From an uncultured Alphaproteobacteria bacterium (GTDB taxonomy: Bacteria; Pseudomonadota; Alphaproteobacteria; RF32; CAG-239), in assembly GCA_944393695.1 (NCBI GenBank), contig CALYAY010000007.1, positions 14,266 to 78,265 of the forward strand: 64,000 nt of DNA, written 5' to 3'. The position numbers were made by a program, and so were the translations under genes. Every line of letters begins with the position of its first letter. The first letter of the stretch is position 1. Positions 1 through 62,602 of this stretch are shown here, in pieces. The notes beneath the pieces were generated by a model that worked only from the letters and a program-made list of their open reading frames with translations, was not told the DNA's origin and did no database searches.

Positions 1-617
1 CAGGGCGTGCATTCACAGGAAGCGTATTTGTCTCCGCAGGCCTCACCCACACCATGATAAGGTGGTTCACAGGTCACGTAATCGCTGGGGCAGTTGGCTT
101 TACATTTTTCAAAATAGGTGTTGTCGTAGGGGCAATAATTATACGGTTCATATCCTTCGAGACAGGAAGTCTGGGTATAACCTTCTTCTTCGCAGCGTTT
201 TTCGTCATTCAGTTCATAATCATCACCTCCGGGAGGCACCCCGCCATTATCGTCATCGGCATTATTTCCCGCAAACTCATTTCCCGAACAATCAGTGGTG
301 TCTGTGACAAAACAGGCCGCGGCAAGTTGGATGAGAGGGGTGTTATGAAACCCTCCCCGACCCCTCCCTAAGTCTTTAGGAAGGGGAAGTATAGAGAGGT
401 CTGAGTTTTCAGGGAGAGTAAATTCGGCAAAATCTTCAAGTGAAGACAAATGAGCGGCCGTGAGGTGTGAAGTGTGTGTAGAAACATGTGATTTAAGCAT
501 GGCCGCGCTTAACGCCGGAGGCGTATCATAAGGATTAAAACCAGCGTAACACAAATCAGCCCCGGCAATAAAGGACATGCACGAAACCGACAACATGAGA
601 ACAGTCTTATTCATCAT
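1..617 (-). CDS. Cys-rich secreted protein family, paralog P1 (3' end runs off window)
   Basis: Absent from the ORF track. Manual translation from ATG 617 is open to the window edge: MMNKTVLMLSVSCMSFIAGADLCYAGFNPYDTPP...SSLEDF-AEFTLPENSDLSILPLPKDLGRGRGGFHNTPL-IQLAAACFVTDTTDCSGNEF...ACGDKYASCECTP. Nearly identical to the P2/P4 N-termini; RBS AGAGGTG upstream. Confidence 0.93.
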   Translation of the reverse strand, partial: MMNKTVLMLSVSCMSFIAGADLCYAGFNPYDTPPALSAAMLKSHVSTHTSHLTAAHLSSLEDFAEFTLPENSDLSILPLPKDLGRGRGGFHNTPLIQLAAACFVTDTTDCSGNEFAGNNADDDNGGVPPGGDDYELNDEKRCEEEGYTQTSCLEGYEPYNYCPYDNTYFEKCKANCPSDYVTCEPPYHGVGEACGDKYASCECTP

Positions 618-660
618 AATAGCACCTCTGTTATTAATTACATTTGTCTTCACGAATCTA

Positions 661-689
661 ATGATAACAGAAAGTTTGATTATTGTAAA
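661..689 (-). promoter_or_regulatory. sigma70-type promoter of P1 (TTTACA-17-TATCAT, extended TG)
   Basis: Hexamers and 17-bp spacing are conserved in all five paralogs while the spacer sequence varies. Confidence 0.75.
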
Positions 690-726
690 TAGATAATTTT
701 GAGTTAAGACGGGAAATCGGACGAGG

Positions 727-1140
727 TTTTAAAACCCCCTCTTACTCCCCCTAATATTTTAGGGGGAGGATAAGTTAGGAGCCTACTGTTTTAGGAGAGG
801 ATGTAAGAATACTTGATTGTCACCCTCACCCGACACTTTGTGTCGACCGTCTGGCTGCGTAAGTGTTGCTGAAAGGGCAACACTAACTTGCTGCGGTCAG
901 CAGCAACTGTAACATTTGTTTCCGTCGCTGCCGTTGGGGCGCAAATTAACAGTTCTGCCCCAGTCGTCAGAAAACAATTCACCGGATTGTTTTCTTTCCT
1001 CCTGCCCCTCTCATAGGGAGAGGTGAAGAAATGGATGACTTTTTTACCTAGATCCTCGGGTTAAACCCGAGGATGACAGGGGAAAGGGTGGCTGAGGATG
1101 ATAGAGAGAAGAGAAGGAAGGATATGGGACGGAGGGTTGG
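727..1140. repeat. Cluster A of REP/RPE-like palindromic elements
   Basis: CTCCCCCTAA..TTAGGGGGAG hairpin; split CACCCTCACCCGACAC..GTGTCGACC / GGGAGAGGT element (821-1024); GATCCTCGGGTTAAACCCGAGGATGAC hairpin (about 1051-1077); purine-rich tail. Confidence 0.85.
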
Positions 1141-1148
1141 ATTTGTAT

Positions 1149-5679: not shown

Positions 5680-8600
5680 TTAATTTATCCGGTCAAGAGA
5701 TTTGGCCAGAATGTAGTAAAGTTTGCCGACGTCTGCTCCGGAGATGACTGATAAAAGCAATCCGGCTTTTTCGCTGTCTTTGGCTTTGCTGACAAGTGTT
5801 TCAAAATCTGTCAGATAGCGGGTGACAATATCACGAAATTCGGCATTCTTTTCAAATTCGTTCTTAATCGCGATTATCTGACTGCGGCTCATGGTGCGGG
5901 TCAAATGGCGGACAAAGGCCGCGGTATCGCCGTTGTAGTATTTTTTCCAGAGCTCTTCTTCAACTCCCGGATTGAAAATGCGGTTGATGTCTACGGCAGA
6001 AGCTTCAAGTTTTTCAACAATATAAGAAGCGTTGCGCAGGAAATTATCAACTTTCATGCCCTCATAAAGTTTTTCGAGCTCCTGAAGTTTGCTCTCGGCT
6101 TTTCCGGATGTTTCATTGAGAATCTGCAGTTGTTTTTTGAACAAGACATTAAAGCCATCTGTTCTTTGCAGAATATTCTCGCTTTGAGCGTTAAAGTCTT
6201 TGGAAGTTGAACTTAATGCCGCGACGGCCTGAGAAACCTTGCCGATAGTATCTTCGCTGGTGTTTACCAGAACTTCGGACTGCTTCAGGAAGACTTCGCC
6301 TGAAGAGCGGATATTATTGGCAATGCGTTCGGCATTGGCAGCAACCTCACTGAGAGAAGCCCGCAATTTGTTGCCGGAGATTTCCATGCTGCCGGTGCTC
6401 TGTTTTGTGGTTTCTTCAACCTGGAGGCTGAGTTTTTTGAGGCTTTCGCCCAGGCCTTTTACCTGGTCATAGGCCTGATTGGCCCGTGTGGACAATTCTT
6501 TGGAAGTGTCGTTAAGAACGGTATTAAAGTATTTGACCAGTTCTTTAGTGCCGGCAGAAAGCTGCAACATTTTATTGTTTTGTTCGGAAATCAGATTATT
6601 GATTTCGACCACGCCGGTGCTGGCCTCGGCGGTAACCGTATTAAAGCCAGCAATGTAGGTTTCGTAATCTTTGATGACGGTTGCAACCTTTTGCTTAGAA
6701 GCAGACACCACCGTGCCCAGATCCTCGGCAGTCTGATTGAGAGACAAACTAATCTGTTCGATGCTTTTTCCTGAGGTTTTGGCGCTTTTGACAACGTCTT
6801 CGCTAAGCTTGATAAGTTTGTCACCAAGAGAATTAAATTCATAAATAATCTTGTGGGCCTGCTCCATAACTTCGTTGCCGTTGTTTTTGAAGCCTTCGCT
6901 GATGGCCGTAACTTTAGCGGCAGCTTCAGCCGAAGCATCGGAAAGATATTTGTATTGCTGAGCCAGCGAAGCCTCGCCCAAACGGCTCTGCGTCGAAACA
7001 ACGTTTATAATGTCGGTCAGGCTGTCAATCTGGTGCTGAAAGGTTTCCCGGATGGCATCACTCTGAGCCTGGGTTTTAACTAACGAGGCATCCAGATTTT
7101 TGATGTGTCCTTCCATCAGAGACATGATATTCTGACTGCTTTTTCCGATACCGTCATTGGCTATTGTCAGTTGATGGCACTTATCAAGAAGGGCATCGGA
7201 AGTGTTACCGGCCTGGGTTCTGATTTCATTAAAGACTTTGGTGAATTCGGTAAATTCGGAAGAAATAAGCTGTAATTTTCCCTGCAGATTTTCAATAACA
7301 TTGCTTACTTCGCTGTTCTGTTCGTCAATGGCTTTATTGACATTCATCAGCTTATCAATTGATTTTTCAAGATTTTCATTAATATTGTCAGAACGTTTGC
7401 TGACGTCTTCTCCCAAAATGACCAGACGGGAGAAAGCACGGTCAGCGGTTTGCTCAATGACCGAAACCTGCTTTTTGAGAGCACTGCCGATGTTGTTGGT
7501 ATTTTCGGAGATTTTATCGCAGATTCCAAAGAACTCATTTTCCTGCTGTTTAAACAGAAGGCTGATGGTTTCGGCTTTTTCATCAAGAGCCTTAACCAAG
7601 TCGGAAACATAGGTTACAGTGCTTTCGGTTACGGAATGCAACGTGTTGTTTTGCGCCGAGAAAGAACTGAGAATATCGTTATGAACTTTTTGGGCATCCT
7701 CTGTCGCTTTGGAAACCATAACCGTCTGAGCACTCAGGGTTTTGGATATATTATCCAAATGCTTATCGATATTGTCGTTAACCGTTTCAATCTTTTGGCA
7801 CCGGTCTTCCAACAGATTGTTTACATTAACCAGTTTGTCCACAGAAGCGGAAGTCGAAGATGAAAAATCTGCCGTTTGTTCTTTTAGCTCGCCATATAAC
7901 TGCCGGGTTTTGGCAATTACGGATTCAGAGGCGGCGATAGCCTGTTCCATTTGATCTTTCAGATTATTAACCGCGCTTTGGGCGTCTTCGTTCATAACAG
8001 CCGAAGCCCGGGTCAGTTCGTCAATTTCCCGTTTAAGTTCGCCCTTGATTTCATCTATACGGCTGAAGGAGGAGTTAATATGCCGGTGCTGCTGGGCCAG
8101 TGCCGCTTCGCTGACCTTGCTTTGGGCGACAATAATGGAAGACGTTTCGGCAAGGCTGTCAGAACCTTTTTTCATGGCTGTTGTTATGTCATTAAAGCAA
8201 TTGGCGGAATCATTTGTCTGGCGGCGGATTTCGTCGCCGGCTTTATTCAAATCAAGCAGCAAAGTGCGCAGGTTGCCCGAAGCCTTATCCAGCATATTGT
8301 TCATATCCGTGTGTTTTGCGGCCAGATCTTCGCTTAACGCCGTGGTTTTGATAATAGTCTTGTCGGCAATATCGGCAACGCCGGAAGCTTCCTTGTTAAG
8401 GGCATCCACCACGGTATTGATGTTGGAAACGGCAATTTCCGAAGTTTTCTGCAACTTTTCGCTTTGAGTACGAATGTTGTTTTCGACATTTTGCATGGAA
8501 GTTGCAATATCGGCAGAAACTCCGCCGAGTTCACGAACCTGAAGGGCAATGCTTTCTTCCGCGACATGGGCCCGGGAAATGATTTTATCAACTTCCTGTC

Positions 8601-9648
8601 CCACGATTTCGCCCTGTTCGCTGAATTTTTTGCCAAGATTGTCGGCATTCTGGTTGAGCAGATTGATGTAATTATTGACACTGTCCGTCTGTTTTTGCAT
8701 GACATCGGCCAGTCCGGTGACGCTGTTGTCGATGGTTGATTTCATCTTATCGCAATCGGCAGCCACCCGGCGGGAAATGTTTTCAATTTTTCCGGCCTGG
8801 GACGCCAGAATTTCAGAGGCTTGAGCAATATTGTTATTTGATTTTTCGGTCAGGGTCAAAATTTCTTCATTAGCGCTAATCAGGCGGGCATTGCTCTTTT
8901 CGGAAACCTGTTCCAGTTGTTCAACGGAATATTTTATTTCGTTGATGTTCGGCATTAGATCGTGCAGAAGTTTGTCGGTTCCTTTTTGCAGGGAAAGGAA
9001 AGAGGCGTTCAGATCCGAGGCGCAGTTTTGAAAACGGGAGGTTGAATCAACAGCCTGGGAATTAAGCTCATTAAAGGTTTCGGCCAGAGATTTGACCGCA
9101 GATGACAATTCGCCGACGGTTTTGGAGGAATAATTATCCAAAACGGCCACGAGTTTTGAAAAATCTTCAACCCGGCCGCCAAGTTCCACCCGGATTTTTT
9201 CGGTTTGTTCCGTGGCCCGGCGGGTGGCTTCCTGAAGCTCTGCCACCTGGGAGCGCAAGGCATCGGCCATAGCTTTTGCCGTCTGGGCTCCGCCGTCTTC
9301 GGGGTAAACGAGCTGATTCATGTAAGCCCGGAGAAAGCGGGCTTCATTTTTGAAACTGGTGCCGCGGTCAATGTAAGCGACAACAACCCAGATAATGGCC
9401 AAAGGAAGGGTTATTCCCGCCAAAAAGCCGCCGAATTCGTCCGGCATCATCAAAAACAGATTATCCCAGCCAAAAAAATATGAAATATAAAACAGGACTA
9501 CGCCAAACCATGCGGCGCTGATCCACAACATCAGGCGATACAGGTTTTGCGTCAGCCAGGAATTTTGCAGTTCGATGTTAACCGAAGCACCGGAAGAAAA
9601 TTCCCGGTCGTTTTGAGCGGAAGCGTTTTCTGCAGACTGATTGGACAT
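5680..9648 (-). CDS. TipN-like membrane-anchored long coiled-coil polarity protein
   Basis: Two N-terminal TM helices, about 1100 aa of heptad/apolipoprotein-like helices, and a C-terminal W..Y..GD...F.R.L...FR..V.RY..DFE....GKLY.ILA block typical of alphaproteobacterial TipN-like proteins. Confidence 0.7.
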   Translation of the reverse strand: MSNQSAENASAQNDREFSSGASVNIELQNSWLTQNLYRLMLWISAAWFGVVLFYISYFFGWDNLFLMMPDEFGGFLAGITLPLAIIWVVVAYIDRGTSFKNEARFLRAYMNQLVYPEDGGAQTAKAMADALRSQVAELQEATRRATEQTEKIRVELGGRVEDFSKLVAVLDNYSSKTVGELSSAVKSLAETFNELNSQAVDSTSRFQNCASDLNASFLSLQKGTDKLLHDLMPNINEIKYSVEQLEQVSEKSNARLISANEEILTLTEKSNNNIAQASEILASQAGKIENISRRVAADCDKMKSTIDNSVTGLADVMQKQTDSVNNYINLLNQNADNLGKKFSEQGEIVGQEVDKIISRAHVAEESIALQVRELGGVSADIATSMQNVENNIRTQSEKLQKTSEIAVSNINTVVDALNKEASGVADIADKTIIKTTALSEDLAAKHTDMNNMLDKASGNLRTLLLDLNKAGDEIRRQTNDSANCFNDITTAMKKGSDSLAETSSIIVAQSKVSEAALAQQHRHINSSFSRIDEIKGELKREIDELTRASAVMNEDAQSAVNNLKDQMEQAIAASESVIAKTRQLYGELKEQTADFSSSTSASVDKLVNVNNLLEDRCQKIETVNDNIDKHLDNISKTLSAQTVMVSKATEDAQKVHNDILSSFSAQNNTLHSVTESTVTYVSDLVKALDEKAETISLLFKQQENEFFGICDKISENTNNIGSALKKQVSVIEQTADRAFSRLVILGEDVSKRSDNINENLEKSIDKLMNVNKAIDEQNSEVSNVIENLQGKLQLISSEFTEFTKVFNEIRTQAGNTSDALLDKCHQLTIANDGIGKSSQNIMSLMEGHIKNLDASLVKTQAQSDAIRETFQHQIDSLTDIINVVSTQSRLGEASLAQQYKYLSDASAEAAAKVTAISEGFKNNGNEVMEQAHKIIYEFNSLGDKLIKLSEDVVKSAKTSGKSIEQISLSLNQTAEDLGTVVSASKQKVATVIKDYETYIAGFNTVTAEASTGVVEINNLISEQNNKMLQLSAGTKELVKYFNTVLNDTSKELSTRANQAYDQVKGLGESLKKLSLQVEETTKQSTGSMEISGNKLRASLSEVAANAERIANNIRSSGEVFLKQSEVLVNTSEDTIGKVSQAVAALSSTSKDFNAQSENILQRTDGFNVLFKKQLQILNETSGKAESKLQELEKLYEGMKVDNFLRNASYIVEKLEASAVDINRIFNPGVEEELWKKYYNGDTAAFVRHLTRTMSRSQIIAIKNEFEKNAEFRDIVTRYLTDFETLVSKAKDSEKAGLLLSVISGADVGKLYYILAKSLDRIN

Positions 9649-13923: not shown

Positions 13924-16119
13924 TTAGAATTGCAGGAAACATAGTGCGTTCATATCATAAGAGTGATTACTGCTATCTTTATTCCACTCATCGAACATCG
14001 TTACAGTTGGGTCAACTAGCCATACCCGGTTTGCATCAATTTCGGTTGAGGTTATGTACCAATCGTCATTATCGACTATATTATCTGCATCAACTTTACA
14101 AAGAGAATTATAGGCGGTTAAATAATTAATCGTAGCATTAAAATTATTTACCAAGCTTTTATAAGCCAAAGGTATTCTCTTTTCCATCCATGTTAATTCG
14201 TAAGCTCCTGGTAAATACCAGTCTCCGACGGATGTTCCTTCTGTAACTTTATTATAGCACACCTCTACATAAGGATAAGATATACCATTGGCTTTGCCAT
14301 AGGCAATAAATGCTTTTGTATTCGCTTTACCGTTCGTATCTGTATAGTCCGAATGGTTTGGAACATCAGGAACATCAAATCCTTTTCCTCCAAATCCAGC
14401 TAGATCATTCGGATAAGGCTTTCCTGAGTCTATATTTTTTTCTACGATCAAGCTTGCTGCTTTACCGGGTTCCACAACGATACCTATAGGTGTTTTTTCC
14501 GGGTGACAGAAATAGCTTTGAGTTTTATCGGAATACAGGATTGGGAGGCGGTTGGTACATTCACCACCAAATCCACTTTCAACCCGCCAGGTATATCCGT
14601 CTTTACAACTACAAGAATTATAATAGATGTACGATTTTTTACCATAGTAGCAACCTTGACCGATACCTCCTTCAGCTTTATAGCTATAATCATCCTCGCA
14701 ATTATATTTATTGCTTATATCATCGCATTCGCAGAAAGCCCCGTTCCAATGGGTTCCGGCAGCACAGGCACATTGCTTGTAATATTTTCGGCTGCCTTCT
14801 TGACAATAATCGCCGCTGGGACTTTCATTTAAGTATGTGCAGGTAAATTTGTATTCGTCTTTACATTCACATCCATCTCTATAATCCCAGCCATTATACT
14901 TGTTTACATCACACTGACAATAAGAATAATATCCATTGCAGGTTTGGGCACCGGACGGTTTTATCTCTCCGGTTCCGGTGCAGGAATAGGCATAATATGA
15001 CGTATCACAGACGCATTGTCCGTTTTTCCAGACATAACCTGATGCGCAACGGCATGATTGGTATTTTCCGTCACAGGATGAGCCGGAACCTCCGGTTTCG
15101 TTGGCACCGGTACAAGTATATTTATATTTGTTCGGGTCACAGGTGCAGGTTTGGGAGCTTGCGTTCCAGACATAGCCCGACTGACAGCCGTTTTTGCAGT
15201 ATTTGTTGGAACATTCCTCTTTCTTGCAGGTGTAAGGCGAAGGACATGAATCCATGGAACATTCATTGGGACAAGGCTTGCAGTTGTCATACAGAGTTTC
15301 GGTTCCCGACAAACAGTTTTCTGCTCCAGCTTCAGGGCCCATGCTGCCGCAATCCATAAACCCGTCACAGGGATTAGGTTTGATTTTGTATTTAGTCTTA
15401 CCGTCGCAGTCTAAGCAAGCTTCGCCGTCCTGAACATATCCTTCGGGAATGGTGGTATAATCATACCCGGAGCTGCAGGGCGTACATTCACAGGAGGCGT
15501 ATTTGTCTCCGCAGGCCTCACCCACACCATGATAAGGCTCCTCGCAGGTTACGTAATTACTGGGGCAATTGGCTTTACATTTTTCAAAATGGGTGTTGTC
15601 GTAAGGGCAGAAGTTAATTGGATCGGAATCTTCCGGGCAATCTGTCATGGTATAGCCTTCTTCTTCGCAGCGTTTCTCGTCATCCAGTTCATAATCATCA
15701 CCTCCGGGAGGTACCCCGCCGTCATTATCATCGGCATTGTTGCCGGCAAATTCATTACCGGAACAATCAGTGGTATCCGTCACAAAACAGGCCGCGGCAA
15801 GTTGGATGAGAGGGGTGTTGTGAAACCCTCCCCAACCCCTCCCTAAGTCTTTAGGGAGGGGGTAGGATAGAGAGCTCACTAAGCCTGTAGGGAGGGAGAG
15901 GTCTGAGTTTTCAGGGAGAGTAAGTTCGGCAAAATCTTCAAGTGAAGACAAATGCGCGGCCGTGAGGTGTGAAGTGTGTGTAGAAACATGTGATTTAAGC
16001 ATGGCCGCGCTTAATACCGGAGGCGTACCATAAAGATTAAAACCGGCGTAACACAAATCAGCTCCGGCAATAAACGACATGCACGAAACCGACAACATGA
16101 GTATAGTTTTATTCATCAT
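13924..16119 (-). CDS. Cys-rich secreted protein family, paralog P2, with C-terminal DUF1566/C-type-lectin-like domain
   Basis: ORF 13924-16155; start moved to ATG 16119 (RBS AGAGGTG, promoter position). Signal peptide, palindrome-derived insert, Cys modules, then ILYSD..TPIG..GKANT..DWYLP..EL..STE..W..K..F. Confidence 0.9.
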   Translation of the reverse strand: MMNKTILMLSVSCMSFIAGADLCYAGFNLYGTPPVLSAAMLKSHVSTHTSHLTAAHLSSLEDFAELTLPENSDLSLPTGLVSSLSYPLPKDLGRGWGGFHNTPLIQLAAACFVTDTTDCSGNEFAGNNADDNDGGVPPGGDDYELDDEKRCEEEGYTMTDCPEDSDPINFCPYDNTHFEKCKANCPSNYVTCEEPYHGVGEACGDKYASCECTPCSSGYDYTTIPEGYVQDGEACLDCDGKTKYKIKPNPCDGFMDCGSMGPEAGAENCLSGTETLYDNCKPCPNECSMDSCPSPYTCKKEECSNKYCKNGCQSGYVWNASSQTCTCDPNKYKYTCTGANETGGSGSSCDGKYQSCRCASGYVWKNGQCVCDTSYYAYSCTGTGEIKPSGAQTCNGYYSYCQCDVNKYNGWDYRDGCECKDEYKFTCTYLNESPSGDYCQEGSRKYYKQCACAAGTHWNGAFCECDDISNKYNCEDDYSYKAEGGIGQGCYYGKKSYIYYNSCSCKDGYTWRVESGFGGECTNRLPILYSDKTQSYFCHPEKTPIGIVVEPGKAASLIVEKNIDSGKPYPNDLAGFGGKGFDVPDVPNHSDYTDTNGKANTKAFIAYGKANGISYPYVEVCYNKVTEGTSVGDWYLPGAYELTWMEKRIPLAYKSLVNNFNATINYLTAYNSLCKVDADNIVDNDDWYITSTEIDANRVWLVDPTVTMFDEWNKDSSNHSYDMNALCFLQF

Positions 16120-16162
16120 AATAGCACCTCTGTTATTAATTACATTTGTCTTCACGAATCTT

Positions 16163-28151: not shown

Positions 28152-30503
28152 TTAGAATTCGAGGACAGGGCGAATGTCATGCCACTCAGACTTGTCTTGA
28201 TACCATAATCCGTAGCTGTAACTAAAACGCAAAAACCATACGGTATAGCTATCATATTCAGAAGATGACCAGATGTTGTCATTTACATAGAGCTGCTCAC
28301 CGTTTGCCAACACGATCCCGGCATTAATCGTTGAAAAATTGTTTTTTATGCTGTTAAATATACCGGCTGCCGGCAGGCACCAATCCCCGACGTTGGTTCC
28401 TTCGGTTGTATACACATATGATTCCCAGGCCGCCGGACAAGAACCGTTTGTTCCGTCCGCGGTTATTACGGCGGTATTTTCACAACTGGCAAAATCTTGG
28501 GCGGCGTCTGATGCTAATGAATAGTTGGACAGACTGGAAATGTCTGTACCATATCCGTTGCTATCCCATTCATTGGTACCTATTGGTTTCAGCGCCATGG
28601 CCTGAGCACAGTTGCCGTCTGAACTTTTATAAACCACCACCGCAATCGGGGGCTTGCCGGAAACGACAGAGGAAGCACAAGTTCCGTCGCTGTAGACAAT
28701 ATCGCCGATATTGCAGTTTTTAGCATAACCGTTACACTTGCCCCATTCGGCTCTTTCCGCTTTTTTACAGGTGTTGGTATCATAGTCGTAAGAATATCCT
28801 TCCTGACAGAACGGAATGACAGGACGAATTCTATTTACAGATTTTTTGCTGGTAGTAGCTAATCCACAGTGATTGTCCATTCCATAGCCGGAATGATAAT
28901 AAGCTTTATAACTTCCTTTGAGCCATACAGAAGACTGATGGGAACCTTCAGTTGATGATATGATGGCTTCTCTTAACAACTCCTGACCTTTTATTAATTT
29001 ATATCCCGAATCAATTTCGCTTGATTTGTAGAAAAATGAAGCCAATACACCGGCAGCAGGCAGACACCAATCGCCAGGTTCTGTTCCTTCTGTTTTATAT
29101 TCATAAGCAGCCCATGCTGCAGGAAATTTGTCTTTATCACCTAAAGCCATAAGATCTTTTGTGTGTTTGCAACTGTCAAGATCTTCAGATGCCAATACAT
29201 CTGAACGTCTGTCACTTGCATAATGGGTTGTTCCATCCCCCCAATTTGATATTGAAATTTGCTCCAAAGCTATGGCTTCTCCGCTGCCATCAGCATAAGA
29301 ACATATAACGACTCCTATGGGAGTTTTGCCTTCAATCAAATTTTTGGAACGAGCCATGTCGCTGTATAAAATATAGCCGTGTTCGTTTCCTTTCATGCAA
29401 TCATTTATATTACAAGAAGCTTGTCTGCAGACACTTCCGTCCCAACCATAATCCCAGTCGTCGCACTCACAGCTTTGATATAATCCATTGCAGGCTTCAC
29501 TGGAGCCGCTGGTTTCATGGCTTCCGGTACAGGTATATTTATAATCTTCCGAACATTGGGCTGTACAAGTTTTGGTGCTTTCATTCCAGTCGTAGCCGGG
29601 TTGACATCCGGTTTTATAATAAAGACCGGAACAGTCTTCATAGGTGCAGGTGAAGGGTGCGGGACAGCTGGTGAGGCTGCCGAGATTGGGGCAAGCCTTA
29701 CAGTTGTCATACATGGTGGTTGTTCCCGACAGGCAGGTCTTTGCCCCGGCTTCTCCGCCCATAGAACCGCAGTCCATATATCCGTCACAGGGATTGGGTT
29801 TGATTTTATACTTGGTTTTACCGTCGCAATCCAGACAAGCCTCACCGTCCTGGACATAGCCCTCGGGAATGGTGGTATAATCATATCCCGCACCGCAGGG
29901 CGTGCATTCACAGGAGGCATATTTCCCGTTGCAGGCCTCTCCCACGCCGTGATACGGCTCCTCGCAAGTGACGTAATCACTCGGACAAGAAGAGACACAT
30001 TTTTCAAAATAAGTTCTGTCGTAAGGGCAATAATTATACGGTTCATAACCTTCCGGACAGGATGTCAGGGTATAACCTTCTTCTATGCAGCGTTTGTCAT
30101 TATCCAACTCATAATCATCTCCCGATCCTCCCGGCGGCACCCCGCCGTCATCCTCATCGGCGTTGTTACCGCTAAACTCATTCCCCGAACAGTTGGTTGT
30201 GTCGGTCACAAAGCAGGCCGCCGCGAGTTTTATTTTATCTTTTCCACCTCGCCCTTGAGGGGAGAGGTCGGAGCGCAAGCTCCGGGTGAGGGTGACAAAC
30301 AAATCATCCTTATCAAAATCTTCGAGTGAAGACAAATGAGCGGCCGTGAGGTGTGAAGTGTGTGTAGAAACATGTGATTTAAGCATGGCCGCACTTAACA
30401 CCGGAGGCGTATCATCAGGATTAAAACCGGCATAACACAAATCAGCCCCGGCAATAAAGGACATGCAGGAAACCGACAACATGAGTATAGTTTTGTTCAT
30501 CAT
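28152..30503 (-). CDS. Cys-rich secreted protein family, paralog P3, with two tandem DUF1566/C-type-lectin-like domains
   Basis: ORF 28152-30539; start moved to ATG 30503. Same leader; two copies of YSD..K.PI.VV..PAAW..Y.TEGT..GDWCLPAAG..SS.E..W..K..IRPV. Confidence 0.9.
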   Translation of the reverse strand: MMNKTILMLSVSCMSFIAGADLCYAGFNPDDTPPVLSAAMLKSHVSTHTSHLTAAHLSSLEDFDKDDLFVTLTRSLRSDLSPQGRGGKDKIKLAAACFVTDTTNCSGNEFSGNNADEDDGGVPPGGSGDDYELDNDKRCIEEGYTLTSCPEGYEPYNYCPYDRTYFEKCVSSCPSDYVTCEEPYHGVGEACNGKYASCECTPCGAGYDYTTIPEGYVQDGEACLDCDGKTKYKIKPNPCDGYMDCGSMGGEAGAKTCLSGTTTMYDNCKACPNLGSLTSCPAPFTCTYEDCSGLYYKTGCQPGYDWNESTKTCTAQCSEDYKYTCTGSHETSGSSEACNGLYQSCECDDWDYGWDGSVCRQASCNINDCMKGNEHGYILYSDMARSKNLIEGKTPIGVVICSYADGSGEAIALEQISISNWGDGTTHYASDRRSDVLASEDLDSCKHTKDLMALGDKDKFPAAWAAYEYKTEGTEPGDWCLPAAGVLASFFYKSSEIDSGYKLIKGQELLREAIISSTEGSHQSSVWLKGSYKAYYHSGYGMDNHCGLATTSKKSVNRIRPVIPFCQEGYSYDYDTNTCKKAERAEWGKCNGYAKNCNIGDIVYSDGTCASSVVSGKPPIAVVVYKSSDGNCAQAMALKPIGTNEWDSNGYGTDISSLSNYSLASDAAQDFASCENTAVITADGTNGSCPAAWESYVYTTEGTNVGDWCLPAAGIFNSIKNNFSTINAGIVLANGEQLYVNDNIWSSSEYDSYTVWFLRFSYSYGLWYQDKSEWHDIRPVLEF

Positions 30504-30546
30504 AATAGCACCTCTGTTATTAATTACATTTGTCTTCACGAATCTA

Positions 30547-46617: not shown

Positions 46618-47342
46618 TCCGGATAGTCGGTTCAATGGTTGCGCCGCATGCGTAAAAAAACGGTTTAGCTGAAAAGTTAAACCGGAGTATGACAGAGAAG
46701 AAAAGCTTGGAGAATAGCAAGGGAGAGAGCGGACTGGAAAGGGTTAAGGCCGATATTTGACCCCTCCGGCTCCCCTTTCTAAAGGGGAGAGGACAATAAG
46801 GAAGATCCCTTGACGTTCAGACTGGCGCTGAACGAGGGATGACAGTTTTATTTTGTTTGAATATGAAACCCTCCCCAGCCCCTCCCTGAGTTTTCAGGGA
46901 GGGAGGAGATAGAGGGGCCTGAGTTTTCAGGGAGGGGATATAAGGAAATTTTTTCACCCTCACCCGACACTTCGTGTCGACCTCTCCCCTCGGAGGGAGA
47001 GGTATAAACAAGTGACTTTGTTTGACCTGGATTCCCGTGCAAGCCGGGAATGACAGAGAGGCGAAATTAGAGTATGCCAGGAAGAGAGCAGACAGGGAAA
47101 GAGTAAGGCTGATATTTAACCCCTCCGGCTCCCCTTTCTAAAGGGGAGAGGGCAATAAGGAAGATCCCTTGACGTTCAGACTGGCGCTGAACGAGGGATG
47201 ACATAAAAAAGATGTCCGAGGATGACAGAAGAGGTTGGAGTATGACTGAGAGGAGAAAGAGGCCGGGAGGATGACAAAAGAGAAGAAATCGGAATATGAC
47301 AAGAGAGAAGGACAAGAAAAGAGGTCAAGGATGGCAGGGCGG
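46618..47342. repeat. Cluster D of palindromic elements with a 100-bp direct repeat
   Basis: 46745-46844 matches 47104-47203 at 97/100. Intact CACCCTCACCCGACACTTCGTGTCGACCTCTCCCCTCGGAGGGAGAGGT at 46955-47003; CTGGATTCCCGTGCAAGCCGGGAATGAC; tandem ..ATGAC half-units. Confidence 0.92.
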
Positions 47343-50707: not shown

Positions 50708-50727
50708 GTTTTGATTAAGACCAAAGG

Positions 50728-50753
50728 CTCCGGCATTCCGCCGGAGTTTTTTT
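50728..50753 (+). terminator. intrinsic terminator of adhE
   Basis: CTCCGGC-loop-GCCGGAG followed by a T-run. Confidence 0.8.
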
Positions 50754-50786
50754 GTTTAAATTATGGTCTTTAGATTAAAATAGTGA

Positions 50787-50815
50787 TTTACAATGCGAAG
50801 TTTTTCTGTTATCAT
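50787..50815 (+). promoter_or_regulatory. sigma70-type promoter of P4 (TTTACA-17-TATCAT)
   Basis: Conserved among the five paralogs. Confidence 0.75.
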
Positions 50816-50859
50816 TAGATTCGTGGAGACAAATGTAATTTAACAAAAGAGGTGTTATT

Positions 50860-52704
50860 ATGATGAATAAGACTGTTCTCATGTTGTCGGTTTCGTGCAT
50901 GTCGTTTATTGCCGGGGCTGATTTGTGTTACGCTGGTTTTAATCCTTATGATACGCCTCCGGCGTTAAGCGCGGCCATGCTTAACTCACGTAATTCTACA
51001 CACACTTCACACCTCACGGCCGCTCATTTGTCTTCACTCGAAGATTTTGCCGAACTTACTCTCCCTGAAAACTCAGGGAGAGACAGAGAGGGTTTCAAAC
51101 CCTCCCTTACCCTCCCTAACTCTTTAGGGAGAGAAGAAGAAACAAATATGTCATCCTCGGATTCTTCTCTCCGTCATTCCCGGCTTGACCGAGGATCCAG
51201 GTTGAAAAAATCGGCTGCTTTATTTGACCTGGATACTCCGGTCAAGCCGGAGTATGACAGAGAAAAAAGGCCGGAGTATGACAGGTCGATCAAGGGTGAT
51301 AACAATAACCTTATCCAACTTGCGGCGGCGTGTTTTGTGACGGATACAACCGATTGTTCCGGTAATGAGTTTGTTGGGAATAATGCCGATGACGATAACG
51401 GTGGGGTGCCTCCCGACGGCGGAGATGATTATGAGTTGGATAATGACAAACGCTGCGAAGAAGAAGGATACACAAAAACCTCCTGTCCCGAGGGATATGA
51501 GGCGGTTAATTTCTGCCCGTATGATAATCATTATTTCGAATATTGTCGGGCACTTTGCCCCAGTGATTACGTCACCTGCGAGCTGCCTTATTACGGCATC
51601 GGCGAGGCGTGTGACGGAAAATATGCTTCCTGTAAATGCACACCCTGCGGCTCAGGTTATGATTATACCACCATTCCGGAGGGTTATGTTCAGGACGGCG
51701 AGGCTTGCTTAGACTGTGACGGCAAGACCAAATACAAAATTAAACCCAACCCGTGCGACGGCTTTATGGATTGTGGATCTGCCGGACCTGAAGCCGGAGC
51801 GGAAAGCTGTCTGTCGGGAACCGAAACCCTGTATGATAACTGCAAACCTTGTCCCAACGAATGTTCTCTGGATTCATGCCCGTCCCCTTACACCTGTAAG
51901 AAAGAGGAATGTTCCAACAAATACTGCAAAAACGGCTGTCAGTCAGGCTATGTCTGGAACGCAAGCGCCCAAACCTGCACCGAAGAATGCGACAGCAGCT
52001 ATAAATATGCCTGTGACGGTTCTGGAGAAACCGGATACGGCGAGGCCTGCAACGGGCTGTATAAGTCATGCTCCTGTACGGAGAATTGTTACACCTGGAG
52101 CAGTTCGTCGGGATGTTCTAATCCGTATCAATATACCTGTTCCGGTCCGGGAGCCAAACCCGGAAGCGGCAGCTGCAACGGTTTGTATTCATATTGTTCC
52201 TGTGAAGACAAAACAGAGGGAATATATTATTATGGTGACACTAAAGGATGTACTTGCAATGAGAATTATTGCTCACGTTATAATATCTATAAATACACCT
52301 GCAACGAGGAGCATGAGCTGCCGGACGAAAAATACCGGTGCTGCAACGACATGTATTCGCGATGCAAATGTGAAGAACCTTACGTATGGAGATATGAAAA
52401 TGGAAAATATGGTTGTTATTGTCCGGAAGAATATAAATACACCTGTTCGGCAGACAGCTGCGAATCTCCGGCGGGTTTGGTATGCGATAACAAATACAAA
52501 GAATGCAGTTGTTCTTGCGGATATGGTTGTGGAAAAGGAGATACTTTGGTAACAGAGGATTATAATACAGACGGAGATACTTCCTTTGCCATATTTAGCT
52601 GGAGCGACGATGATGGAGGATATTGCAGAGCAGACCGTTATTCCACAAATACAGGAAACACCACTGCTTTTGTTTGCATTGTCGGAGGGCAGGAAGATTG
52701 GTAG
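50860..52704 (+). CDS. Cys-rich secreted protein family, paralog P4 (no lectin-like C-terminus)
   Basis: Same leader; longest palindrome-derived insert (88 aa); Cys modules continue to the end. Confidence 0.9.
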   Translation: MMNKTVLMLSVSCMSFIAGADLCYAGFNPYDTPPALSAAMLNSRNSTHTSHLTAAHLSSLEDFAELTLPENSGRDREGFKPSLTLPNSLGREEETNMSSSDSSLRHSRLDRGSRLKKSAALFDLDTPVKPEYDREKRPEYDRSIKGDNNNLIQLAAACFVTDTTDCSGNEFVGNNADDDNGGVPPDGGDDYELDNDKRCEEEGYTKTSCPEGYEAVNFCPYDNHYFEYCRALCPSDYVTCELPYYGIGEACDGKYASCKCTPCGSGYDYTTIPEGYVQDGEACLDCDGKTKYKIKPNPCDGFMDCGSAGPEAGAESCLSGTETLYDNCKPCPNECSLDSCPSPYTCKKEECSNKYCKNGCQSGYVWNASAQTCTEECDSSYKYACDGSGETGYGEACNGLYKSCSCTENCYTWSSSSGCSNPYQYTCSGPGAKPGSGSCNGLYSYCSCEDKTEGIYYYGDTKGCTCNENYCSRYNIYKYTCNEEHELPDEKYRCCNDMYSRCKCEEPYVWRYENGKYGCYCPEEYKYTCSADSCESPAGLVCDNKYKECSCSCGYGCGKGDTLVTEDYNTDGDTSFAIFSWSDDDGGYCRADRYSTNTGNTTAFVCIVGGQEDW

Positions 52705-52719
52705 AATATAAACCAAGAA

Positions 52720-52752
52720 AAAACTCCCTTTAGAAAATTCCAAAGGGAGTTT
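52720..52752. terminator. bidirectional terminator downstream of P4
   Basis: AAACTCCCTTT-loop-AAAGGGAGTTT between convergent genes. Confidence 0.78.
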
Positions 52753-52755
52753 CTT

Positions 52756-53268
52756 TTAAGCTAAGGCAACCGAGTGCATCATGCCCGCGATGAAACTGTC
52801 TGTATCACGATTAAAGTGATAATACTTCCGTGCAATGCAGGCCAGCAGGGTGTCATAAGAATAGCGTTTTTGCAGCATCTTATTTTGCAGTCCCTTTAAG
52901 CGGTAATACTCGACCCAGTTCAACAGCGGACAATTCTTCAAACGCCGGCTGATTTTTTCAAAACGGCGAATGTCAACAAGCATTTCATTGTAAAACGCAG
53001 CCTGACGTTCCAGAGTAATCTGAGGCAGGTTTTCCAGGATGAACGCCATCTCCCGACGGCAGGAAATTGCCGCTTCGGCTCGGATGTCCTTAAACATTGA
53101 CAAAACCTCATAATCGCTTCGGGCGCAGGAAAGAATGTTGTAATTGCATAATTGCACCAACAGCGAATGAGACATGGCAATGAACAGTTTTTTGTAATTT
53201 TCTTCAGTCACGGCTTCATCCAGCATGTTTTTGGCTGCACAAAGCTCCTTAATTGTTAAGCTATACAT
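52756..53268 (-). CDS. hypothetical protein
   Basis: 170-aa helical ORF; no recognised motif. Confidence 0.7.
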   Translation of the reverse strand: MYSLTIKELCAAKNMLDEAVTEENYKKLFIAMSHSLLVQLCNYNILSCARSDYEVLSMFKDIRAEAAISCRREMAFILENLPQITLERQAAFYNEMLVDIRRFEKISRRLKNCPLLNWVEYYRLKGLQNKMLQKRYSYDTLLACIARKYYHFNRDTDSFIAGMMHSVALA

Positions 53269-53435
53269 AATATATAAGAATTAATAATAAAAAATAACGA
53301 CGTAATAATATGTATTTTTTTGGTGTTGTCAATCTTATTTGAAAAAAAATTGCGGGCGCATATTGACAAAATTTATTAAAAACGGTATTATCTCTCAAAA
53401 ATTGACAAATTCTATTTTATCTTACGGAGATTAAA

Positions 53436-54839
53436 GTGAGCAAGAAAACATATTTTGCCTCTCAGAGTCTTGATGTTTATCTGGCGGCACAGAGCGGCGT
53501 GCCTTTTAGTTTTGACTATCATAAGCCGCGGAAAAACTTTTTTGAAGACGGACATGCCGCCATTGTGGAACAGAGCATTGATTTTATCGAAAAATTTTTA
53601 TCCGGGGAAAATGTAATCAATCCCGGCGACATAGATAAAGTTTCGGATCTGATTGATATGGTGCATCATACTTCAGATAAAAAGCTCCGGCTGAAAATGA
53701 ATCAGCTTTACCATAAATTTGAAGAGAAAAAGGCGGAATTAAACCGTCGGAATGAAAATGTAAAAAAATTTGAAGATATTAAGTATGTGGAAAAGGCACT
53801 TTATAACAAGAAGACGGCTCGTGCTCTTTCTCCAGAAGAACTGCTGGCAGCAAAAGCAACATTAGACAATGTTCAGGCAAACGGTTCACAATATCAAAAA
53901 TTGGCTCAGAAATTAAACAGTTACGCCTTACTGAAATATTCCGACCTGAAAAACAACGATGAATTTTTGCCGTCGAATCCCGTTCATCAGCAACTCAGAG
54001 ACGACTTCGGGCTGCAGCATGTGCGTCTTAGTCAGACATTTTCCCGCCAGCCGGTAAACAAGGTTGCTCAGCCTGTGGTAAAAAAGGTTGAAAAGATTTC
54101 GTGGCTGAAAAAACTGAAAGACAATGTAAAGAATCGGGTGGAAAAGATTTCAGATTGGGCCGAGGAGAAAAAAGATTATCTGCATTATCTGTACCGTCGG
54201 CACGAGATAAAAATTGCCGCAGGATCATTTGCGCTGCTCGGTGTTTTGTTTGTGAAAATTATGAATCAGGAACCCAAAGCCGCACCTTATTATCCGGGAC
54301 AAAACCATAATACCGAAACCAAGGCCCCTGCCCCGGCTCAGGTGCAGGATACGGCGCAAACCGTTGATTTTGTTCAGGCGGCGCAGGCCCTGAAAAAAAC
54401 GGAAACGTCCGCTCAGGAAACCGATCAGAATAAAAACGGCATTGTCCGGGAAACCACCATTGACGGCGACTATTATGATACGGCTTTGGAAATTCATTTG
54501 AAATCAAAGCAAAAAGTTTTGTCGCTGTATCATAAAATCGACAGTCTGGCCAAAAGCGGCAAGATTAAATTTGCCGACGGAACAAACGCCAAGCGCTATG
54601 CCCATGCGGCAACCATGTATCGCCTGATCCGGCCTAATTCTGCCGAAACCAAAGCCTTTGAAAAATTGTTCGGCGGGGAAAAAATTGACAGCGGTTATCT
54701 TAATAATCTGGTGTTGAAGGCCGGAGAAAAAGGAACCGGTGTTAAACCCGACAATAACAATATCCGTCACAGCAATTTTGACGCGGCATCTAAAATTCTG
54801 CAGGCAAAACATATGCAAAATCTGCGGGGAGCCAGATAA
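53436..54839 (+). CDS. hypothetical protein with one central TM helix
   Basis: GTG start after GGAG; hydrophobic IAAGSFALLGVLFV; downstream hairpin AAAAAGGAGT/ACTCCTTTTT. Confidence 0.78.
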   Translation: MSKKTYFASQSLDVYLAAQSGVPFSFDYHKPRKNFFEDGHAAIVEQSIDFIEKFLSGENVINPGDIDKVSDLIDMVHHTSDKKLRLKMNQLYHKFEEKKAELNRRNENVKKFEDIKYVEKALYNKKTARALSPEELLAAKATLDNVQANGSQYQKLAQKLNSYALLKYSDLKNNDEFLPSNPVHQQLRDDFGLQHVRLSQTFSRQPVNKVAQPVVKKVEKISWLKKLKDNVKNRVEKISDWAEEKKDYLHYLYRRHEIKIAAGSFALLGVLFVKIMNQEPKAAPYYPGQNHNTETKAPAPAQVQDTAQTVDFVQAAQALKKTETSAQETDQNKNGIVRETTIDGDYYDTALEIHLKSKQKVLSLYHKIDSLAKSGKIKFADGTNAKRYAHAATMYRLIRPNSAETKAFEKLFGGEKIDSGYLNNLVLKAGEKGTGVKPDNNNIRHSNFDAASKILQAKHMQNLRGAR

Positions 54840-54969
54840 GGCCGCGGCTTAAATCAAAGATAAAAAGGAGTAAAAAAACTCCTTTTTTTGTTTTTAAATA
54901 ACTATTTATTAACATATTACGGATAGTCTAAAGAAGATTTTTGATAAAACTTATTTCTGGAGAAAACAA

Positions 54970-55185
54970 ATGAAAAACTTGAACGAAAATGCCATCAGAG
55001 AAGCTGCTTACTACATCTGGAAAAATGCCGGCTGCCCGGCCAATACCAGCCTGCAGGACTGGAATGCAGCTATTCAGCAGCTTTCTGCCACTAACAACAA
55101 AAATGTTAAGACTTCGGCTCTGAAGACTGTTTCTCTGAAGAAAAGTTCTTCCAAGACTTCAAAGTCTTCTAAAAAATCCAAATAA
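54970..55185 (+). CDS. DUF2934-like small protein with Lys/Ser-rich tail
   Basis: IREAAYYIW..AG.P.....DW..A..QL pattern; GGAG RBS; downstream terminator. Confidence 0.8.
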   Translation: MKNLNENAIREAAYYIWKNAGCPANTSLQDWNAAIQQLSATNNKNVKTSALKTVSLKKSSSKTSKSSKKSK

Positions 55186-55315
55186 ATTTTGGTTTTGGTT
55201 AATGAAAGTCTCTTCGAAAGGAGAGGCTTTTTTTTGATGATAAAATGAGTTTCAAATAAATAAAAAAAGTTCTTGCATTTATGAAGACATCGTTCTATAT
55301 AATATCTCAGAGATA

Positions 55316-60346: not shown

Positions 60347-60379
60347 GTTAGAACAAAATTGTTTCGCAAAAGCGGTAAG

Positions 60380-60418
60380 AAAATCCCCCTTTGAATATTT
60401 TTCGAGGGGGATTTTTTT
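60380..60418. terminator. intrinsic terminator
   Basis: AAATCCCCCT-loop-AGGGGGATTT followed by a T-run. Confidence 0.75.
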
Positions 60419-60498
60419 GCTAATGTTTTGTTTTTACATATAAATTAAAGTCGTGTTTTATTCTTGTCCAAATTCCGGTCATATAATCAAAATATCTA

Positions 60499-60527
60499 TT
60501 TACAATGCTTTAGTTCTATGTTATTAT
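60499..60527 (+). promoter_or_regulatory. sigma70-type promoter of P5 (TTTACA-17-TATTAT)
   Basis: Conserved even though the P5 signal peptide is more divergent. Confidence 0.75.
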
Positions 60528-60562
60528 AAGATTCGTGAAGACAACAACAGACAGGTGATATT

Positions 60563-62602
60563 ATGATGAAACTAAGTAAAGCATTAATGCTGTCGGTTTC
60601 CGGACTGATGTTTACGTCCGGCGGCAGTTTGGCTTATGCCGGTATTTCAACGCATGATTTAACATCTTTCAACTCTCCGGGGACGGTTACATTTGTCCAC
60701 ACACACATCACACACGCCTCTGCCCCGGAAGAGCGTTTGTTGTCTTCACTTGAAGATTTTGATAAGGATAATTTATTTGTCACCCTCACCCGGGGCTTGC
60801 GCTCCGACCTCTCTCCTCAAGTGCGAGGTGGAGAAGGGACTCTGTCATCCTCGGACTTGATCCGAGGATCCAGATGGATTAAAACAGCAAATTTATTTGA
60901 CCTGGATACTCCAATCAAGTTGGAGTATGACAGAGAAAAGGGGCCGGAGTATGACAGGACAACCAAGAGTGATAACAAACTCATTCAACTTGCGGCGACC
61001 TGTTTTGTAACCGACACTTCAGCTTGTTCAGGCAATGAGTTTGGCGGGAACAATGGCGATGATGAAGGTCACGGCACTCCCGGCGGACCGAATGACGATT
61101 ATGACCTCGACAATGGGGAGCGCTGTCGTCAGGAAGGATATAACCAAACATCCTGTCCTGAAGGACAGGAACCTGTCAACATCTGCCCCTATGACAGTGA
61201 TTATTTCGAGAAATGTGTTTCTTCCTGTCCTACAAATTATGTAACCTGTGAAGTCCCATATTATGGGGTTGGTGAGGCCTGCGACGGGAAATACGCTTCT
61301 TGTAAAAAAGACACCGAACGTGCCTGTAAAGAATTAAACCCCGGATATGTTAACAGTTGCGGCACAGGGCAGCGGCTTAGCGACGACCGTTGTTCTTATG
61401 ACAACACCTATGGCACCTGCTGCAACACCTGTGCAGGTTACGATTATACCAGCATTCCGGATGGCTATGTCCAGAATGGAAACAGCTGTACCGGCTGCGA
61501 CGGACAGGAATATTTCAAAATAAAACCCAATTCCTGCGACGGTTTTCTGAATTGCGGCTCCATGGGACCGGAAGCCGGGGCCAAAACCTGTCTTTCGGGG
61601 ACAACTACCCTGTATGACAACTGCAAATCTTGTCCTTATGAATGTTCGCTGAGCTCATGCCCGTCACCTTACACCTGTAAGAAAGAGGAATGTTCAAATA
61701 TGTATTGCAAAACCGGCTGCCAAAGCGGCTATGACTGGAATGCAAGCACCAAGACTTGTACAAAGCAATGTGCCTATGAATGCACTTACAGCAGCTGCCC
61801 CTCACCTTTCACCTGCCGCTATGAAGACTGCTCGGGCAAATACTGCAAAACCGGCTGCCAAAGCGGCTATGACTGGAATGCAAGCTCCAAGACTTGCACA
61901 AAGCAATCCACGCCGCTGCCCAGCGACAGCAATTGCAGTTGTTTCGGGACAAGAACCGAATCTGACGGCTGCGGCGGGACGAGAACGGTTTGTAATGTTC
62001 CGGATTTGAAATATCTGTATTCTGACAAAACGCTGAGCGCTGATATTATTTCGGGCAAAACAATTGTCGGTATCAGTATTGAACCGGAAAACCGACTGGC
62101 CGTCGGCCTCGGATATACTCTGGACGAATGGGGCGGATACGGAACGGATATTCCGACACTGGAAAATATTTCCTGGGTTGGCAGAGGAGTTTATGTCTGC
62201 GGCGAACGGTCCATGTATGAGGTCAGAGACGGCAAAGCAAATACCCAGACAATTCTGGCTTATGGCAAGAGCAGCGGCATCTCGTATCCGGCGGCAGAAT
62301 GGGTGAATTCCTATCAACCGACGGGATGCAGCGCCGGAAGCTGGTGCGGAGCCGGAAACTGGTTCATCCCCTCGACCTGGCAGGCCTTTGCCTATTTCAA
62401 CAACCGGGATAAAATCCTCTCCATGCTGGAGGCGATTAACCAACTTCCTGATGACTGGATGTATACACAAGATGGTTTTTATACTATGACTTCTAATGAA
62501 ATCAGTGCGACCGAGCCCGGGTTCCTCTATTTCAACCAAGGAGCAATGGCTCGCAGCGATAAAACGTTTCAACAGGTTTCTTTGCCGTTTATTGAATATT
62601 AA
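60563..62602 (+). CDS. Cys-rich secreted protein family, paralog P5, with C-terminal DUF1566/C-type-lectin-like domain
   Basis: Diverged leader; SSLEDF-insert-IQLAATCF; Cys modules with a 46-aa tandem duplication; YLYSD..GKANT..YPAA..WFIPS..TSNE..K. Confidence 0.9.
   Translation: MMKLSKALMLSVSGLMFTSGGSLAYAGISTHDLTSFNSPGTVTFVHTHITHASAPEERLLSSLEDFDKDNLFVTLTRGLRSDLSPQVRGGEGTLSSSDLIRGSRWIKTANLFDLDTPIKLEYDREKGPEYDRTTKSDNKLIQLAATCFVTDTSACSGNEFGGNNGDDEGHGTPGGPNDDYDLDNGERCRQEGYNQTSCPEGQEPVNICPYDSDYFEKCVSSCPTNYVTCEVPYYGVGEACDGKYASCKKDTERACKELNPGYVNSCGTGQRLSDDRCSYDNTYGTCCNTCAGYDYTSIPDGYVQNGNSCTGCDGQEYFKIKPNSCDGFLNCGSMGPEAGAKTCLSGTTTLYDNCKSCPYECSLSSCPSPYTCKKEECSNMYCKTGCQSGYDWNASTKTCTKQCAYECTYSSCPSPFTCRYEDCSGKYCKTGCQSGYDWNASSKTCTKQSTPLPSDSNCSCFGTRTESDGCGGTRTVCNVPDLKYLYSDKTLSADIISGKTIVGISIEPENRLAVGLGYTLDEWGGYGTDIPTLENISWVGRGVYVCGERSMYEVRDGKANTQTILAYGKSSGISYPAAEWVNSYQPTGCSAGSWCGAGNWFIPSTWQAFAYFNNRDKILSMLEAINQLPDDWMYTQDGFYTMTSNEISATEPGFLYFNQGAMARSDKTFQQVSLPFIEY

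Follow-up and report, generated by a model that had tools for sequence, protein, structure and literature searches.

Bacterial proteins that contain in-frame translations of palindromic repeats have been described mainly in Rickettsia, with scattered insertions that number few per gene. These Rickettsia palindromic elements (RPEs) are palindromic repeats of ~100–150 bp that occur in many copies. Among other small repeats, miniature inverted-repeat transposable elements, or MITEs, carry terminal inverted repeats and measure 50–500 bp, and repetitive extragenic palindromic sequences (REPs) are extragenic by definition and linked to a REP-associated tyrosine transposase (RAYT) of the Y1 type. Here, we describe a family of 58 open reading frames (ORFs) in which one spacer, between the leader and a Cys-rich domain, is filled by in-frame mosaics of palindromic elements that otherwise lie between genes. 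Five members stand in a 64,000-nucleotide stretch (the window) of the metagenome-assembled genome (MAG) of an uncultured alphaproteobacterium (GCA_944393695.1, contig CALYAY010000007.1). With G000 as the label for the source genome, the window is G000:C7:14266-78265, and its coordinates are offset by 14265 from those of the contig.

Excerpts of PMC10969869, a review of MITEs in prokaryotes from 2024, describe in-frame fusions of intragenic MITEs as not unusual, present RPEs as the furthest case, R. conorii having 44 insertions spread over unrelated genes, and name REPs as targets for insertions. A further parallel is offered by palindromic amphipathic repeat coding elements (PARCELs), which in excerpts of PMC2996958 are dyad-symmetric coding repeats that form variable segments of membrane-targeted or surface proteins and are apparently mobile. 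A survey of full-text literature, set apart from subscription journals and supplements, returned no elements that are confined to one spacer of one large family, nested and independent of the flanks.

The window paralogs share one layout: a signal-peptide-like start, a His-rich motif, ...LSSLEDF, a variable stretch, I[QK]LAA[AT]CFVTD and a Cys-rich region. An earlier note, made from the letters of this DNA, had reported five inserts in five paralogs at the same codon, and all five were recovered with the positions and lengths given in Table 1, each a multiple of three and stop-free in the ORF translations. The insertion point is indeed one site, but the boundaries shift within a spacer of ~15 codons. 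LEDF is lost in many copies, where the insert begins directly after LLSS, and the K of the IKLAA variant is encoded by the A/T-rich end of the element. Five paralogs also proved too few, as the pattern extends to all 58 family ORFs across the genome.

G000 comprises 1.75 Mb in 38 contigs at ~46% G+C, with a marker-gene completeness of 100%; lpxB, parC, comEC, adhE and similar genes point to a Gram-negative organism with a small genome. Contigs longer than 3 kb from chicken-gut or bird metagenome runs match the unique flanks of the window with 0–1 mismatches. Queried with 130 residues from behind the insert, tblastn returned 60 matches in G000, one of them spurious, and the family takes up 5.1% of the genome. 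Walking upstream in frame from each domain placed leader, insert and domain within one open frame in 54 copies. Three copies end at contig edges and are open up to there, one (C9:9110) has its leader in a different frame, with the break located inside the insert, and one extra match at a contig start has no upstream sequence. The census of G000 that the earlier note had proposed thus finds inserts that are rarely frame-breaking, with one frameshifted copy against 54 in frame. The anchor at the leader end was found in 52 copies, 50 of which carry inserts of 63–417 nt; the other two are ‘empty’, with 33 nt separating leader from domain. Some eight insert types are spread over the ~58 sites.

Four full window paralogs had no match in Pfam or NCBIfam, and a protein Atlas search gave no usable match for the family. 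About half of the copies are a short form with 259–261 codons behind the insert; all five window paralogs are long forms whose C-terminal modules differ from one another. At G000:C1:269800-270100, one family gene is followed immediately downstream by a secreted Cys-rich gene of a second type, with its own signal peptide and the ‘...YSD...KTPIAVVVY...’ type of C-terminal module seen in the family. This common module suggests that the two families share domains.

When folded, the inserts form stacks of perfect hairpins, and one of 234 nt forms a single nested palindrome (-137.8 kcal/mol) with the TCACCCTCACCC core and its complement as the outermost arms. Relative to dinucleotide shuffles, the P4 insert reached a z-score of -8.4 and the P1–P3 inserts -2.4 to -3.0, compared with -1.7 for the leader and -1.2 for the domain as coding controls. 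Modules were chosen by position from the inserts and blasted against G000 at a coverage of at least 70%, which resolved hairpin or nested-palindrome elements of 48–213 bp with tens of copies each. Module A occurs 30 times in family ORFs and 66 times outside, C 17 and 29 times, D 13 and 10 times, E 3 and 23 times, and F once and 10 times, respectively; B, a three-hairpin composite (20 copies), and G (2 copies) have 0 copies outside. The C/D element spans ~210 bp, carries inverted TCACCCTCACCC termini and itself lacks coding capacity; comparison of empty with filled sites places it between ...GATGAT and AATAAA.... A-type inserts vary by one to four tandem hairpin units. No Rfam family corresponds to these elements, and an Rfam scan of the window returned two tRNAs only. 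Two sister copies (C13:19543-19617 and C10:27440-27514) carry the 75-nt type G insert, which is unique in the genome, folds weakly and may be a non-repeat variant of the spacer.

The 12-nt core occurs 64 times in G000 (19 in family ORFs, 45 intergenic) and is directly followed by a hairpin in 57 of these occurrences. That hairpin has at least four alternative stem versions in which both arms changed together (for example, at 46955-47003 and 820-870). Because core-adjacent stems exist in fully compensated versions, structure rather than sequence is maintained, and the repeat is a clear example of compensatory variation in DNA. The match that the earlier note had drawn between the P3/P5 unit and intergenic 46955-47003 accordingly holds for the conserved blocks but not for the first stem, which differs while remaining fully paired. 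Identity with intergenic DNA is complete for 15819-15861, part of the P2 insert, and intergenic 30734-30776 (43/43 bases), and the combinatorial make-up described in the note is borne out: P4 joins a first hairpin array of P1/P2 type to palindrome D, and P5 joins a P3-type start to the same D.

Blasting all anchored inserts against G000 gave 55 merged element intervals within family ORFs and 269 outside, so that a fifth of the total (55/324) is translated as part of the family. Only 20 of the 269 outside intervals fall within non-family ORFs of at least 120 aa. These ORFs are read-throughs of element clusters or lie upstream of a true start, as in one ‘ORF’ that is the upstream extension of a real gene whose true start lies beyond the element, and no element was found in a credible non-family coding sequence (CDS). 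ORFs of at least 200 aa cover 81% of G000, and the elements therefore avoid coding DNA apart from the family spacer. The single-site hotspot in one family that the note had proposed is thereby supported, as is its expectation for other CDSs, at least among ORFs of this size class (at least 120 aa). Within 1 kb of a family gene lie 138 of the outside intervals (51%), a four-fold enrichment given that 12.8% of non-ORF DNA is found there; the other 131 are more than 1 kb away, 88 of them at over 10 kb or on contigs that lack family genes. Further abundant repeat types of intergenic clusters (for example, in G000:C38 and at C12:39500-39700), recognisable by the recurring peptides of junk ORFs, were never seen in the spacer. 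Only some element families enter the family gene.

All 50 anchored inserts of at least 63 nt are open in the frame of the gene; of the same 50, the five alternative frames leave 0, 1, 2, 5 and 13 open. For each of elements E and F a single frame out of six is open, and it is the one used in the gene. Frame-breaking versions do arise, because the C9:9110 copy is frameshifted inside its insert. We modelled the N-terminal 381 residues of P4 with AlphaFold2 from a 30-row alignment. The predicted local distance difference test (pLDDT) score was below 50 at residues 1–132, 136–159 and 164–189, a region that takes in the leader, the whole insert, the CFVTD segment and an acidic/Gly-rich stretch; residues 190–381 were predicted as a beta-rich, Cys-rich domain with block means of 78–94. 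The model fits a permissive N-terminal region that may be flexible or removable. Open frames in 50 of 50 inserts, one frameshifted copy and an insert with pLDDT below 50 are all compatible with the cargo tolerance that the note had suggested. A fold search with the P4 model gave nothing above Z 3.5 and returned only small TNFR/EGF-like Cys-rich motifs at residues 331–381. The ...LAAxC... motif was considered as a lipobox and rejected by eye: its -1 position is V or T in many members, and it lies up to 140 residues from the signal peptide.

Secondary elements recur at fixed places within primary ones. In three gene copies and in four of the five intergenic copies examined, one and the same pair of hairpins of an A/B-type array flanks element E, and element F occupies, in its one gene copy, the same C/D arm as in intergenic copies. 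A primary element in the spacer would thus attract secondary ones, and the mosaics are explained without recognition of the gene itself.

We compared the distribution of insert types with trees of the flanks, built from 600 nt behind the insert (domain tree, 50 paralogs) and 165 nt of leader (leader tree, 49 paralogs), using 500 shuffles. Insert type required 28 changes on the domain tree (shuffle mean 29.2; 157/500 shuffles as low or lower) and 30 on the leader tree (shuffle mean 28.8). By contrast, leader cluster required 8 changes on the domain tree (shuffle mean 19.2), a value reached in 0/500 shuffles. The flanks are therefore inherited together, and the insert between them is phylogenetically random. 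Insert type differs within four of seven strongly supported sister pairs; types A and B each occur in three leader clades, and types C/CD in two. Use of the insert as a crossover point that shuffles leaders against domains is not favoured, given the strong linkage of leader and domain. A very recent spread looks unlikely: insert identity showed no excess over flank identity, and the extreme pairs are artefacts of truncation at contig ends.

The family occurs in all 14 other genomes of the genus, with 9–57 matches each. Within the same family-rank group it is present in 7 of 10 further genera, and 16 genomes from beyond the group gave none. A scan with patterns taken from the window recovered no relative; broader alignment yielded 80 loci from 12 related assemblies, in which the spacer was compared between the H-rich motif and ...CF[VI]TD. 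Three of these assemblies have a short, repeat-free spacer, with leaders of 60–81 aa in all 15 complete copies. In the others, leaders reach 98–226 aa and are translated from different palindromic element types, which, where flanks were available, are also found outside ORFs of the same assembly. Element queries from G000 matched in 6 and 7 of the 14 congeners. These queries found none of the G000 elements in congeners G012, G003 and G010, which carry 9–43 family matches and the AdhE proteins most similar to that of G000 (93–94% identity). G002 and G006 likewise gave no match to the G000 elements, and leaders were short in every family copy examined from G012, G003, G010, G002 and G006. Repeat-free sisters with short spacers indicate that inserts appear where a genome has such repeats, with the qualification that kin are not independent.

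Table 1. Family paralogs, their inserts and intergenic element clusters in the window (window coordinates)
Feature	Position	Strand	Description
P1 paralog	3..653	-	N-terminal 217 codons, remainder cut by the window edge; signal peptide, H-rich motif, insert, Cys-rich domain
P1 insert	333..428	-	96 bp = 32 codons; A-type hairpin array; folding z -2.83
P2 paralog	13924..16155	-	743 aa
P2 insert	15808..15930	-	123 bp = 41 codons; A-type
P3 paralog	28152..30539	-	795 aa
P3 insert	30234..30314	-	81 bp = 27 codons; C-type unit: TCACCCTCACCC core, then two hairpins
P4 paralog	50860..52704	+	614 aa
P4 insert	51049..51312	+	264 bp = 88 codons; three-hairpin B array and long inner palindrome D; folding z -8.42
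P5 paralog	60563..62602	+	679 aa; second leader type
P5 insert	60761..60982	+	222 bp = 74 codons; C-type start and inner palindrome D
Intergenic element cluster upstream of P1	820..1079	.	C-type core with nested F-type element
Intergenic element cluster upstream of P2	16234..16490	.	C7 30499-30574 and 30678-30755
Intergenic element cluster upstream of P3	30734..30844	.	Contains the 43 bp shared exactly with the P2 insert
Intergenic element cluster distant from family genes	46862..47060	.	C-type unit 46955-47003 with an alternative, fully compensated first stem

The cluster upstream of P1 has about ten near-full copies elsewhere in G000. Around P4, window positions 50708-55315 (~4.6 kb) hold this paralog and two ORFs behind it, with adhE on one side and tRNA-Pro(GGG) on the other. 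The closest relative examined lacks this stretch, and its tRNA-Pro follows adhE within ~100 nt; across the genus, 0 of 11 regions compared have a same-strand family gene downstream of adhE. Family genes thus occupy species-specific places, and P4 adjoins a tRNA gene. Two other large ORFs of the window stand apart from the family: the largest gene, of 3338 aa (36601-46617, + strand), has no Pfam match in its first 1200 residues, and a 1322-aa ORF (5680-9648, - strand) has a sub-threshold, coiled-coil-type match to ATG17-like as its sole Pfam match.

Support for the P4 assembly comes from contigs of runs from three studies, which match, with 0–1 mismatches, both inner insert sequence and the insert–domain junction: X1 covers 51109-51252 and 51230-51339, X2 covers 51102-51252, and X8 covers 51090-51256 and 51234-51346. 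One of the matching runs is possibly the source of the MAG. Joints in X8 and X13 contigs (for example, 51138 to 51317) match the arrangements of other paralogs and give no evidence of polymorphism at P4. X13, from an RNA library that may contain DNA, covers parts of P4. Among candidate mobility enzymes, the RAYT/Y1 or DUF559 type of protein that the earlier note had suggested did not turn up: G000 has no match to PF01797 (Y1/RAYT), for which the same search was positive in 6 of 14 genomes as a control, and none to rve, DDE_Tnp_1 or DUF559, and IS110 and TnpB-type matches stayed below the cut-off; GIY-YIG was not part of the search.

We consider it probable that a disordered, permissive spacer has been colonised by REP- or MITE-like elements and is held open by selection. 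The paralogs would be secreted, disulfide-rich proteins with a signal peptide, a short His-rich motif, an empty spacer of ~11 codons, ...AAxCFVTD, an acidic/Gly-rich stretch and a Cys-rich beta domain. Several families of small, non-autonomous palindromic repeats (of REP type, in the manner of bacterial interspersed mosaic elements (BIMEs), or of MITE type) form mosaic clusters between genes, and the family spacer is the sole coding place where such repeats persist. Primary elements, either short hairpin arrays or the ~210-bp element with TCACCCTCACCC termini, would fill the spacer, and secondary elements would then enter the primary ones at a fixed position, whatever their location, making the element rather than a codon the landing pad. 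Cassettes may be reshuffled independently of the flanks as tandem units are gained or lost and as paralogs exchange short patches, with selection purging any version that contains a stop, departs from 3n or lies outside the single open orientation. What survives would be translated as a variable, predicted disordered segment between leader and mature domain. The anatomy, the identity with intergenic elements, the nesting, the lack of elements in other CDSs, the frame filter, the decoupling from flank phylogeny and the repeat-free sister species are observations. On the interpretive side, the elements are presumably mobile and tolerated through disorder or later removal of the segment, and the inserts would have no function of their own.

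Several observations weigh against this account. The element library was derived from the inserts, which leaves the census blind to elements that never entered the gene, and the CDS test covered ORFs of at least 120 aa with 60-nt margins, without proper gene calls. The MAG, rated 100% complete by marker genes, yielded neither a transposase nor a RAYT, and mobility is read from distribution alone. Copies of insertion sequences (ISs) and repeats are often left unassembled in MAGs, and a RAYT copy may have been missed. Empty and filled sites revealed no clear target-site duplication; all that is seen is a short GATGAT/GGTGAT-like repeat, which shares bases with the inverted repeat. Occupancy of 50 of 52 anchored copies amounts to a near-saturation that simple tolerance does not predict and leaves room for a selected role. 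Median identity among same-type inserts (0.67–0.82) is close to that of the flanks (0.72–0.80), which is awkward for rapid turnover; inserts about as diverged as their flanks point to many old events (short-patch conversion between paralogs, replacement, or loss followed by regain) and not to a recent burst. Of the 47 inner branches of the domain tree, 15 lack resolution, and low pLDDT does not prove disorder. Finally, no independent-run contig reaches across the whole P4 insert with unique sequence on both sides, as many paralogs have the leader and first hairpins in common.

That near-saturation is also the first argument for a recruited function, by which the mosaic would be kept as a tether or epitope of variable length and sequence at the N-terminus of a surface protein, as an mRNA structure that tunes translation or export for each paralog, or as a homology patch for short-patch gene conversion that would diversify the family. 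Inserts that act as cassettes exchanged independently of both flanks, hairpin stems maintained through compensatory changes and folding far better than that of the flanking coding sequence all agree with such a role, as does the size of the family, which takes up 5.1% of a reduced genome and shows expansion in 14/14 genus genomes, as would be expected of host-interaction proteins. We nonetheless hold it to be unlikely: the expanded family of sister species has a repeat-free spacer and a leader of ~60–80 aa, two copies in G000 are empty, the encoded peptides are merely the one open frame of each element, and leader and domain are not shuffled against each other. The sole sign of expression, moreover, is the set of contigs from one RNA library that possibly contains DNA. 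A related and rather doubtful proposal is that the spacer is a genuine cassette site in ~58 paralogs, framed by conserved codons of leader and domain, at which palindromic modules are swapped by short-patch conversion or by some hairpin-directed enzyme. If so, a gut symbiont would gain a combinatorially variable N-terminal segment or an expression setting for each paralog, and REP-like repeats would have been domesticated as a diversification device on its main surface-protein family.

The direction of transfer might also be reversed, with the spacer as an ancestral, family-specific hypervariable linker and the intergenic elements as debris of decayed family genes. The half of the outside intervals that lie within 1 kb of a family gene (138/269) and the B composite, found only inside family ORFs (20/20), would suit this history, which we rate as very improbable. 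The remaining 131 intervals lie farther off, including the 88 at distances above 10 kb or on family-free contigs; tblastn with both the leader and the domain block found no fragments of either beside intergenic copies; E and F are mostly intergenic (23/26 and 10/11); G012, G003 and G010 hold 9–43 family matches but none of these elements; and unrelated element types occupy the same site in other species. Least credible of all is an artefact, in which short-read assembly of a repeat-rich MAG misjoined repeat units. Run contigs are indeed fragmented across the P4 region, none spanning a whole insert, depth over the common leader and first hairpins is 20–40 times that of the unique flanks, and many MAG contigs end in or beside family genes. 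Random misjoins, however, would not be expected to leave 54 copies in frame, contigs of runs from different studies cover 51090-51346, including the P4 insert-domain junction, with 0–1 mismatches, and the same architecture recurs in independently assembled relatives.

Scattered RPE insertions make site permissiveness and target choice hard to study, and here ~58 replicate sites in one genome, together with empty sites, a frameshifted copy, nested insertions with one target position in coding and non-coding DNA alike and repeat-free sisters, form a natural test case of the conversion of selfish repeats into protein sequence. Questions that become testable are those of tolerance (disorder or removal of a pro-region), targeting (element into element) and turnover (flank-independent exchange). 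A repeat invasion can evidently supply the most expanded gene family of a reduced gut bacterium with tens of new peptide segments, and annotators need to know that such segments derive from repeats.

Among described systems, RPEs resemble this one in that small palindromic repeats lie between genes and, in frame, within genes, where they are translated as extra peptide segments, and in that the host is likewise an alphaproteobacterium with a small genome. RPEs, however, are scattered over unrelated genes, whereas all coding copies here fall in one spacer of one family and form nested mosaics of several element types; the host here is gut-associated and not a Rickettsia, and the likeness drawn here is one of arrangement. 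PARCELs share with these inserts a dyad-symmetric coding sequence that adds variable segments to surface proteins, but they consist of amphipathic 25-residue domains in tandem that account for much of an ORF, whereas the present inserts are hairpins of intergenic type confined to a leader spacer. MITEs such as enterobacterial repetitive intergenic consensus (ERIC) and Correia elements match the C/D element in its terminal inverted repeats, its length of ~210 bp, its lack of coding capacity and its in-frame fusions; they differ in that no cognate IS or transposase was found here and in the concentration at a single site within a family of 58 genes. With REPs and BIMEs the elements have in common short imperfect palindromes, conserved flanking blocks, compensated stems, intergenic mosaic clusters and a role as insertion targets, but 55 of 324 element intervals lie in family ORFs and G000 has no PF01797 match. 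The system thus works like RPEs and looks like REP/BIME mosaics while failing the defining features of each: the scattered targets of the former, and the extragenic location and RAYT of the latter.

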